Part shown: in pieces, positions 8,101 to 11,100 of the stretch
How positions within the stretch are numbered: the first letter of the stretch is position 1
How the letters are laid out: each line of letters opens with the position of its first letter
Assembly: GCF_045037415.1 (NCBI RefSeq)
Contig: NZ_CP173438.1
Strand: one strand, 5' to 3'
DNA from: Escherichia coli
GTDB lineage: Bacteria > Pseudomonadota > Gammaproteobacteria > Enterobacterales > Enterobacteriaceae
Length of the DNA: 64,000 bases
Program-made: the position numbers

Positions 8101-11100
8101 TTCTGAAAAAGGCAGCGCGGTACTTTGCAAGGGAGCCCGACTGAAGTACCGCTTCATCAACGATCACCGTGAAATCTGGTCGATCGTAACAATGTGTCGG
8201 GTTCTGAAGGTCGCCCGTGCGGGATTTTACGTCTGGCTTCATCGCCCTGTTTCTGCCGGAGAAAAGGATAATCAGCGGTTGCTGGAGCTCATCCGCGATG
8301 CTTATGCACTGAGCGGCGGAGTCTACGGTTATCGCAGGGTTCACGGCGATCTTCGTGAAATCGGTGAAGTATGCAGCAGAAACCGTGTTGCCAGAATCAT
8401 GAAGCGGAACAGGATACAGGCCGTACATGGCTATAAGGTCCCGCGTGGCGTCAGGGGAAGGCCGTCACTGATAGCTCCTAATCGCGTACAGAGGGAATTT
8501 ACGATGGTAAAACCCAACCAGGTGTGGGTGACTGATATTACCTACAGTGTGCCCGGAGTTCAGGGCGGGCATGGATGCTTAAATGAACCGCGAGTCTGTC
8601 TGGAATATTGAGCCGGTAACTCACGATGAGAAACCCAACAATCCCACCGGGTGTGACGGTGGAGAACCTGAGCGGCAGTGACCTGCGGCATGCCCGCAGG
8701 GTGATGTAACCCGCTGACAACGGGGATTGAGGCGAGATCACTAAGCCGAGATGATCCTCAAGGTTAAGTACTGAAAGGCTGAAGAACATGAACCCGTTAA
8801 TCCGCCTCTGTGGGTTGAAAACGTCACCACGGCCTACGTGATCTGACAGGCCGTGCAGGAGGAACTGGCAGTGATACGTAAGCACTGCCGGTCGAAGGTG
8901 TTTTGACATGTATGCGAAACACCGGGGCAGCAGCGTCTATCACGCTTGCGTTGCTGACTTCTGCCAACTTGCGGCAAGCAAGGATAAAGAGTGCGACGGG
9001 CAGCCTCCTCAGTATGCCTGAGTCCAGGCAGGTAAACCGGGGAAGGTCAGCGACGGATGTTAAGGGGGCATGGCTCCGATGACGCGCTGGCTGGCGGAGC
9101 TTCCGTAGTAGTCCGCGATGGGGAAAGCCCATTACATGGCGAAGGGAAGCAGTTTGAATGTGTTTGCGACGTGAATTAACTGACCTAACGAGGTGAAGAC
9201 CTTTGATAATCAGCGAAATGCAACGCAAGCTTGCCACATGGGCAGTCACCGATCCGTCCCTACGGATTCAACGGCTGCTGCGTCTGATAACACAACCAGA
9301 ATGGCTGGCTGAAGCGGCGCGGATCACGCTTTCATCAAAGGGGGCCCATACCCCCGGCGTTGATGGCGTGAACAAAACAATGCTACAGGCCAGACTGGCT
9401 GTTGAGCTGCAAATCCTCAGGGATGAATTACTCTCAGGCCACTACCAGCCCTTGCCCGCCAGACGGGTTTACATCCCTAAAAGCAACGGCAAACTGCGAC
9501 CACTGGGTATCCCCGCGTTGCGGGATCGTATTGTTCAGCGGGCCATGCTGATGGCGATGGAGCCGATATGGGAGAGTGATTTTCATACGCTCTCATATGG
9601 CTTCCGGCCTGAGCGCAGTGTCCACCACGCGATCCGCACGGTGAAATTACAGCTCACAGACTGTGGTGAAACCCGGGGACGCTGGGTGATTGAAGGCGAC
9701 CTGTCCAGTTACTTCGACACCGTACATCATCGACTGCTGATGAAGGCTGTACGCCGCAGGATCAGTGACGCACGTTTCATGACTCTGCTGTGGAAAACCA
9801 TCAAGGCGGGACATATCGATGTCGGTCTCTTTCGGGCGGCCAGTGAAGGTGTGCCACAGGGCGGTGTTATATCGCCGCTATTATCGAACATCATGCTGAA
9901 TGAGTTCGATCAATACCTGCATGAGCGCTACCTGAGCGGGAAAGCCAGAAAAGATCGGTGGTACTGGAATAACAGTATCCAACGGGGCCGAAGTACGGCG
10001 GTCAGAGAAAACTGGCAGTGGAAACCCGCGGTGGCGTACTGCCGCTATGCCGATGATTTTGTCCTCATCGTCAAAGGCACCAAAGCACAGGCGGAAGCCA
10101 TCAGGGAGGAGTGTCGGGGTGTGCTCGAAGGCAGTCTGAAACTCAGGCTGAACATGGATAAGACTAAAATCACCCATGTTAATGACGGCTTTATCTTTCT
10201 GGGGCACAGGATCATTCGCAAACGCAGTCGTTATGGCGAGATGCGAGTGGTTCAACGATCCCGCAGGAGAAAGCCAGAAACTTCGCCGCATCGCTGACAG
10301 CACTGTTATCAGGCAACTACAGTGAAAGCAAAGTCGATATGGCTGAACAACTCAACCGAAAACTGAAAGGCTGGGCCATGTTCTATCAGTTCGTTGATTT
10401 TAAGGCCAAAGTCTTCAGTTATATCGACCGTGTCGTGTTCTGGAAGCTGGCTCACTGGCTGGCCCGCAAATACCGTACAGGTATCGCTTCCCTGATGAGG
10501 TGGTGGTGTAAATCACCGAAACCGGGTCAGAGCAAAACGTGGGTTTTATTTGGTAAAACCAATCACGGCAAGCTCAGCGGCGAAATACTGTACCGGTTGG
10601 TGGGGCAAGGCAAGAAGCTGTTCCGCTGGCGGCTACCCGAAGGTAATCCCTATCTGAGGACGGAGACCAGAAACACGTATACATCGCGCTTTACAGAAGT
10701 GGCAATGGCGTTCGCCAGCATTTAAATGGAGAGCCGGATGCGCTGAAAGGTGCACGTCCGGTTCGGGGAGGAGAGGCAGGGAAATAGTCCGACTACGCCC
10801 TGCCTCTTACTCTACTCCGCACCTGGCAGGGTTGGCTGTATCTGGCGGTGGTTATCGATCTTTTTGCCCGTAATGTGGTGGGCTGGTCGATGAAACCAAC
10901 GCTGTCGCGCGAGCTGGCACTGGATGCGCTGCTGATGGCAGTCTGGCGGCGTAAGCCTGCAGAAAACGTCATAGTGCACAGCGATCAGGGCAGTCAGTAT
11001 GGCAGTGATGACTGGCAGCGGTTCTGCAGGGCCAACAATCTGGCGCCGAGTATGAGCCGTCGTGGCAACTGCTGGGATAATGCGGTGGCAGAATCGTTCT

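Follow-up and report, generated by a model that had tools for sequence, protein, structure and literature searches.

The window analysed here is a stretch of 64,000 nucleotides from the Escherichia coli assembly GCF_045037415.1 (contig NZ_CP173438.1), in which an integrase gene adjoining ychF is followed by ISEc24, an insertion sequence (IS) of the IS3 family. The orfB transposase gene of this ISEc24 copy is interrupted by a group II intron of 2269 nt (8547-10815, plus strand) which, judged by its sequence, is the catalogued intron E.c.I4, an endonuclease-less member of bacterial class A. The arrangement as such is already known: E.c.I4 has long been catalogued in transposase genes of the IS3 family, and RefSeq annotates the same arrangement in nine genomes. 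The first-pass annotation of the window had described a group II intron lying within the orfB gene of an IS3-family element, in the sense orientation of that gene. The results presented below support this description and identify the element as ISEc24.

Boundaries, host element and identity of the intron

The features of the locus are listed in Table 1. The intron starts with GUGUG at 8547, in accordance with the 5′ consensus GUGYG, and it ends with CTCTAC (CUAC in the RNA), the last base being 10815, in accordance with the 3′ consensus AY. The Rfam model RF00029, which describes group II domains V and VI, matched positions 10729-10815 of the plus strand with 64.9 bits (gathering score 40; E = 1.9e-11), and the 3′ end of this match coincides exactly with the intron end. 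When the region 10720-10815 was folded alone it formed domain V followed by the helix of domain VI (z = -5.6 relative to shuffled sequences), in which one A bulges out 7 nt from the 3′ end of the intron. Excision of 8547-10815 joins ...GATATTACCTACA/TCCGCACCTGG..., upon which OrfB reads ...VTDITY-I-RTWQGWLYLAVVIDLF...; the ligated-exon junction expected from ISEc24 is ACCTACA/TCCGCACC. An empty site is available for comparison, as the pth-ychF-integrase-IS locus without the insert is present in many E. coli genomes. In one of these, the intron-less strain AGR6128, the annotation of the IS copy gives an intact transposase of ISEc24 with programmed frameshifting, and the spliced window (6000-8546 joined to 10816-11900) is identical to this locus at 3632 of 3632 nt. 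Since the flanking bases differ at each junction, the boundaries are unambiguous and cannot be shifted by even one base. The boundaries that had been read by eye (5′ GTGTG at 8547 and 3′ CTAC at 10815) are therefore correct to the base according to both RF00029 and the empty site. The RF00029 match also bears out the earlier placement of domain V at 10731-10764, the predicted restoration of the OrfB frame upon removal of the intron holds, and the proposed comparison of the exon junction with intact IS copies gave no mismatch.

Without the intron ISEc24 is 1230 bp long, a size that follows from its terminal inverted repeats and replaces the earlier estimate of about 1260 bp. The element has the TG...CA ends typical of the IS3 family. 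No direct target repeats of 3-4 bp were found in its flanks (TTC versus CTT; 7791-7800 and 11300-11309), which leaves the family assignment unaffected and suggests that the insertion is old or has been rearranged. From 8087 onwards the orfB frame is open; it overlaps an AAAAAG run, giving the 0/-1 frame arrangement of IS3-family elements. The product of spliced orfB is a complete IS3 transposase (E = 2e-106 to NF033516), whose rve domain spans residues 124-221. This transposase is split by the intron after Y135, between the catalytic residues D132 and D192; the 5′ exon of orfB includes the first base of the Ile codon following D-I-T-Y and stops there. The full integrase-ISEc24 junction is present in 539 of 5426 complete E. 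coli genomes. Intron-less ISEc24 occupies this locus in 539 genomes, and the same intron insertion is present in nine. ISEc24 was found at this one locus in the 539 genomes, with a median of one copy per genome. Together, the lack of a direct repeat and the single locus suggest that the ISEc24 insertion is old, inactive or rearranged. The presence of the intron in ISEc24 would most simply be due to a single recent insertion event.

Relative to E.c.I4-23 of E. coli IAI39 (NC_011750:3581215-3583484), a copy catalogued in Table S3 of Leclercq & Cordaux 2012 (PMC3522654), the window intron has 4 substitutions and 1 deletion. The two are identical at 2265 of 2270 positions (99.8%), more than the >95% nucleotide identity to a catalogued copy by which these introns are named (PMC3552965). 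Comparison with the E.c.I series, which had been proposed as a check, hence gives a clear answer: the intron is E.c.I4. Like the window copy, E.c.I4-23 lies in the sense orientation at the same codon position of an IS3-family orfB gene, in its case that of IS629; unlike E.c.I4-23, the window copy resides in ISEc24 and is one C short in its protein gene. Another copy, E.c.I4-tr1 of strain K-12 (ykfC; in IS911A of the CP4-6 prophage), is 99.6% identical to the window intron over the first 1763 nt and occupies the homologous site of IS911. This copy is cut by IS5 and lacks domains V and VI, whereas the window copy is full length. The K-12 small RNA EyeA (b4690; 272580-272654) is annotated inside domain I of this truncated E.c.I4, upstream of ykfC, and the window intron contains the same sequence (equivalent to 8936-9010).

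E.c.I4 is widespread. The insert matched 2346 of the 5426 complete E. coli genomes; matching plasmids number more than 1800 and come from genera including Escherichia, Klebsiella and Salmonella. Identity is at least 99% in nearly all cases, and the annotation given is 'group II intron reverse transcriptase/maturase'. Most copies are hosted by IS629. E.c.I4 has been reported to home to 'various IS3 elements' at specific positions of their transposase genes, namely to IS629, IS911, ISEc16 and ISEc31 (PMC3522654); ISEc24 is absent as a host from the text and supplements of that paper. ISEc24 is thus an additional natural host of E.c.I4, occupied in only ~2% of the genomes carrying ISEc24. E.c.I4 has been assigned to bacterial class A, the proteins of which are without the endonuclease region (Toro & Martinez-Abarca, PMC3552965). 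In papers of 2013-2014 class A consisted of three near-identical members; given the diverged relatives described below, its breadth may be wider than that.

The layout of the 5′ half of the ribozyme was obtained from a consensus fold based on an alignment of five relatives. This fold predicts domains I to IV, with compensatory changes in 27 of 184 pairs. The stem closing domain I (8552-8556 with 9037-9041), which was read from the alignment, shows compensatory changes in the Brucella relative. Within the 5′ half, conservation is highest in domain III, for which matches were also found in introns of Bacillus, Clostridium and Sinorhizobium. As for the earlier proposal that the RNA be folded against the group II model, domains V and VI adopt the canonical structure, including the bulged A, and domains I to IV are predicted by the consensus fold. 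In some RefSeq records a 40-residue 'hypothetical protein' (WP_001406634.1) is annotated within domains II-IV of the intron (approximately window 9058-9180); it is probably an annotation artefact.

Table 1. Features of the intron-bearing ISEc24 locus in the window
Feature	Position	Strand	Basis or remark
Tyrosine recombinase (integrase) gene of the island	6574-7749	+	immediately upstream of ISEc24, same orientation
ISEc24 (IS3 family), intron-interrupted	7801-11299	+	RefSeq annotation of identical copies; related IS matches stop at both ends
Left terminal inverted repeat of ISEc24 (TGGAGTG...)	7801-7825	+	25 nt, 80% complementary to 11275-11299
orfA of ISEc24, 94 amino acids	7860-8144	+	open reading frame; intact copy annotated orfAB with programmed frameshift
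orfB of ISEc24, 5′ exon	8087-8546	+	-1 frame relative to orfA; spliced product matches IS3 transposase NF033516
Intron-binding site 2 (IBS2), GATAT	8534-8538	+	pairing table, permutation control
Intron-binding site 1 (IBS1), CCTACA	8541-8546	+	2-nt spacer after IBS2; pairing table, permutation control
Group II intron E.c.I4	8547-10815	+	RF00029 match, empty site
Domain I	8547-9041	+	alignments, consensus fold
Exon-binding site 2 (EBS2), 5′-ACGUC	8821-8825 (intron 275-279)	+	loop of hairpin 8808-8832
Exon-binding site 1 (EBS1), 5′-CGUAAG	8877-8882 (intron 331-336)	+	covariation; loop unpaired in consensus fold
Domain II (predicted)	9046-9095	+	consensus fold
Domain III (predicted), GAAA-capped hairpin	9099-9150	+	consensus fold
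Domain IVa hairpin with Shine-Dalgarno sequence (GAGGUGAAGACCUU)	9190-9203	+	conserved in all relatives
Reverse transcriptase/maturase gene (ltrA-like; 502 amino acids when intact), split by 1-nt deletion	9218-10725	+	open reading frames, Pfam
Site of the missing C	10249-10253	+	reference GGTCTC, window GGT-TC; frameshift after codon 344
Domain V, 34-nt catalytic helix (AGC triad, 2-nt bulge, GAAA loop)	10731-10764	+	RF00029 match, fold
Domain VI with bulged branch-point A at 10809	10767-10813	+	fold
orfB of ISEc24, 3′ exon	10816-11264	+	first base T, presumed IBS3
Right terminal inverted repeat of ISEc24 (...CACTCCA)	11275-11299	+	25 nt

Recognition of the target exon

The codon position at which E.c.I4 is inserted is identical in five hosts: IS629, IS911/ISEc52, ISEc15, an unnamed IS3 element and ISEc24. 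Insertion takes place between the first and second bases of the codon that comes next after D-x-T-Y, shortly beyond the first catalytic Asp, and position +1 is always T. For relatives in Klebsiella, Yersinia pestis, Salmonella, Brucella and Burkholderia this codon position is likewise the insertion site, within the DDE transposase genes that harbour them. These relatives reside on plasmids (of Brucella anthropi, Burkholderia pseudomallei and Klebsiella, on pMT of Y. pestis and on a pESI-like plasmid of Salmonella), and they share with E.c.I4 the overall architecture, the insertion codon and a near-identical domain V. They differ from it in the 5′ half of the ribozyme, where nucleotide identity is 72-95%, and in their EBS loops, which have changed in step with their own exons; the protein of the Burkholderia relative is 64.7% identical to that of E.c.I4. 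The Salmonella relative looks decayed, with GUAUA at its 5′ end and internal deletions, and the Y. pestis relative is truncated.

Pairings between the EBS loops and the exons were identified for both recognition sequences. EBS1 is located in a 9-nt loop (intron 327-335) of the hairpin 8865-8891, and its sequence CGUAAG is exactly complementary to CUUACG of the IS629 exon. In its place the Y. pestis relative has GAUAUG and the Brucella relative GGUAUG, and the exons of both end in CCUAUC; these changes are compensatory at exon positions -1 and -2. EBS2 pairs with exon positions -13 to -9 and covaries with them across five intron lineages, the variants AUGUC, AGGUC and GUGUC tracking the exons GAUAU, GACUU and GACAC. 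When each of the five lineages was assigned its own exon a total of 47 pairs was obtained, which is the best of the 120 possible permutations (mean 41.8).

At the ISEc24 site 4 of the 6 EBS1 positions and 4 of the 5 EBS2 positions pair, the exceptions being A.C mismatches at -1, -5 and -10; ISEc24 is therefore a near-cognate site. Among the hosts the best match to EBS1 is found in IS629, the exon of E.c.I4-23 pairing at 6 of 6 positions versus 4 of 6 for the window exon, and the best match to EBS2 in IS911. The EBS-IBS pairing with the flanking exon that had been suggested as a check is thus supported as far as the covariation of the loops with their exons is concerned, and is partial at ISEc24 itself. 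Insertion into a near-cognate site, backed by the covariation of EBS1 and EBS2, is relevant to the question of how an endonuclease-less intron spreads across an IS family. On a more speculative reading, tolerance of A.C mismatches at -1, -5 and -10 would let one and the same intron colonise many members of the IS3 family via their conserved D-x-T-Y codons.

Other candidate sequences were considered and rejected. The sequence UGUGGG (intron 263-268) can pair as EBS1 with all five host exons if wobble pairs are allowed; it forms the 5′ strand of the EBS2 hairpin stem, however, and does not covary with the exons. UGAUGU (intron 156-161), a candidate for EBS2, has good complementarity to all exons and was ruled out as well: U159 pairs with A131, with a compensating G-C pair in Brucella, and in our reading the sequence lies upstream of a CUAAG receptor-like motif. 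No consistent pairing was obtained with the loop of hairpin 290-301 or with EBS2 in the register 270-276.

A comparable case is provided by RmInt1 of Sinorhizobium meliloti, a class D intron whose natural home is ISRm2011-2 and whose protein has no endonuclease domain. Like E.c.I4 it has its homing site inside an IS and recognises its target by EBS-IBS pairing; it differs from E.c.I4 in class (D versus A) and in the IS family used, and its mobility has been shown experimentally. Experimental data on E.c.I4 were not found in the literature surveyed.

The one-base deletion and the route of arrival

The intact protein of the sister copies is 502 residues long, with RVT_1 at residues 86-332 and GIIM at residues 356-421 according to Pfam, and these are the only two domains in it; an endonuclease domain (D/En) was not found. 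In the window the corresponding gene, situated in domain IV of the intron, is divided into two open reading frames, 9203/9218-10297 and 10339-10725. Where the reference reads GTGGTCTCAACG the window reads GTGGT-TCAACG, a C having been lost after 10251 (intron position 1706). It is because of this missing C that the window intron measures 2269 nt as compared to the usual 2270 nt. The predicted window product consists of 344 native residues followed by 15 out-of-frame residues; it keeps the reverse transcriptase (RT) domain, has the maturase domain out of frame, and covers positions 4-282 of the 353-position RT/maturase model. The maturase is required for efficient splicing of group II introns in vivo. 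With this domain lost, the copy as written could not splice or move alone, and no second copy of the intron is present in the 64-kb window.

The deletion is absent from all nine genomes with the same insertion. Over the 64 kb, the window differs from one of these, strain AH20E044, by two single-nucleotide polymorphisms (SNPs; 25321 and 55639), the deletion in the intron and one IS1 difference, so that, IS1 aside, the deletion at 10251 is the only indel. The IS1 concerned is a 768-bp IS1B of AH20E044 at ~26292-26300 that is not in the window. The same C deletion was found in only 7 of 2693 records, which involve other host IS elements and other strains, with plasmids among the replicons. Two of these records were examined, the chromosome of E. 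coli E08 and plasmid p98215. Their differences from reference intron copies lie almost only in the motif GGTCTC/GAGACC, where those at intron positions 1281, 1706 and 2120 comprise a C deletion, a C>T change and a G deletion. In addition, three of the four differences between p98215 and a near-identical plasmid are inside this motif.

The explanation that best accounts for the results as a whole, to which we assign a probability of about 85%, is that E.c.I4 retrohomed into the sense strand of ISEc24 orfB, guided by its EBS sequences, and that it is functional if the deletion is an artefact. The sequence data show directly which intron this is and where it begins and ends, and they also show its domains V and VI, the domains of its protein, its pairings with the exon and the corresponding empty site. 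Retrohoming as the arrival route is our inference, and so are co-transcription with the IS (or transcription through read-through), in-vivo splicing and what the deletion represents. Retrohoming would have been RNA-mediated and endonuclease-independent, with the sense strand of the single-copy ISEc24 orfB gene as target, and the choice of this target would have been made by pairing of EBS1 with exon positions -6 to -1, by pairing of EBS2 with positions -13 to -9, and by the T at +1. Once co-transcribed with the IS, the intron would be excised as a lariat with the aid of the RT/maturase, leaving the same orfAB mRNA that intact ISEc24 would give. As long as it is unspliced, the intron would lie between D132 and the other two catalytic residues, D192 and Glu, and the transposase would be inactive. 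If the deletion is an artefact, the window copy would be a functional intron like those of the nine sister genomes; restoration of the transposase mRNA by splicing would depend either on this or on protein supplied in trans.

Several observations weigh against this explanation. A permissive Rfam search for domain I-IV models returned nothing beyond domain V, and because no Rfam model matched these domains their fold is a prediction. The EBS assignments are based on five lineages and on a single permutation test whose power is low (1 in 120), and exon position -5 is mismatched with its own EBS1 in four of the five lineages. Splicing from the ISEc24 exons may be inefficient, considering that only 4 of 6 EBS1 positions pair and that position -1 is among the mismatches. 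With regard to the deletion, the window has eight further GGTCTC/GAGACC sites, including two in the intron, and all of them are intact; the whole-window comparison with AH20E044 revealed no general accumulation of errors at GGTCTC sites, and a systematic artefact in this sequence is thus putative.

We consider it somewhat likelier that the deletion is a base-calling or assembly artefact than that it is a true mutation. The motif-linked pattern resembles methylation-associated base-calling errors, and multi-copy repeats are hard to polish, which would fit such an origin. It is quite possible, nevertheless, that the deletion is real and that the window contains a decaying E.c.I4 copy whose protein ends after the RT domain and which has no efficient splicing or mobility of its own; ISEc24 would then be permanently disrupted unless another E.c.I4 copy supplied the protein in trans. 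The deletion is, after all, present in the sequence as given, the intact state of the other eight motif sites and the absence of a second intron from the 64 kb agree with it being real, and E. coli SMS-3-5 and S. flexneri 2457T are known to contain full-length E.c.I4 copies with disrupted reading frames (PMC3522654). What speaks against a real deletion is that none of the nine genomes with the same insertion carries it, one of them being only 2 SNPs away in 64 kb, and that the identical loss recurs in unrelated replicons and host IS elements with changes confined to the same motif. A further possibility, that the recurrent loss of this C is a genuine motif-directed lesion, for instance one linked to an Eco31I-type restriction-modification system, which would repeatedly inactivate the maturase, seems improbable to us. 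Single-base frameshifts in multi-copy elements are in any case not to be read straight as biology.

The alternative to retrohoming as the route of arrival is DNA recombination or gene conversion with an intron-bearing IS3 element such as ISEc15::E.c.I4, which is ~86% identical. Donors for such an event exist, since intron-bearing relatives of ISEc24 (ISEc15) are found on E. coli plasmids. However, each exon is identical to empty ISEc24 as far as its splice site (no mismatch over 3632 nt), whereas the exons of ISEc15 and IS629 diverge within a few bases of the junction. Because the donor exons differ so close to the junction, conversion would need crossovers exactly at the intron ends, which makes it very unlikely; exons that are unaltered up to the junctions argue for retrohoming instead. 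That the resemblance to group II introns is due to chance, or that the insert is an element of another kind, has a negligible probability and is rejected in view of the Rfam match (E = 1.9e-11), the match of the intact copy to the RT/maturase model TIGR04416 (E = 8e-102), the near-identity to a catalogued intron and the exact empty site.

As to the orientation of the intron relative to replication, the ychF gene of K-12 maps to the minus strand, at 1.257 Mb. We take this locus to be on the clockwise replichore, in which case the intron sense strand would be the leading-strand template, presumably not the orientation favoured by the endonuclease-less RmInt1. As the target is single-copy, the intron had no choice of orientation.

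The surrounding genomic island

The accessory island between ychF and dhaR, in which ISEc24 and its intron are nested, is ~28 kb long in the window and ~29 kb in AH20E044, which has the additional IS1. According to the comparison with AH20E044, the ychF-dhaR segment contains the integrase gene, IS fragments, a second recombinase gene, an ABC-three-component system and a retron Ec67-type RT. The integrase gene adjoins ychF, the position that is taken by ycgV in K-12. The window contains no tRNA genes, and the island is therefore not tRNA-associated. Nesting of the intron in a genomic island, as the first-pass annotation had put it, is a fair description of this integrase-bordered segment, whose presence varies between strains.

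The retron Ec67-family RT/endonuclease gene and the ABC-three-component system, together with an adjacent hypothetical gene, are located at ~28268-33799 on the minus strand (mapped from NZ_CP196245.1, 343797-349328). This content, in the vicinity of the IS and the intron, gives the region a defence-island-like character. Near the end of the window, a match to the small RNA C0299 (Rfam RF00119, 111.9 bits) is present at 63149-63227 on the minus strand.

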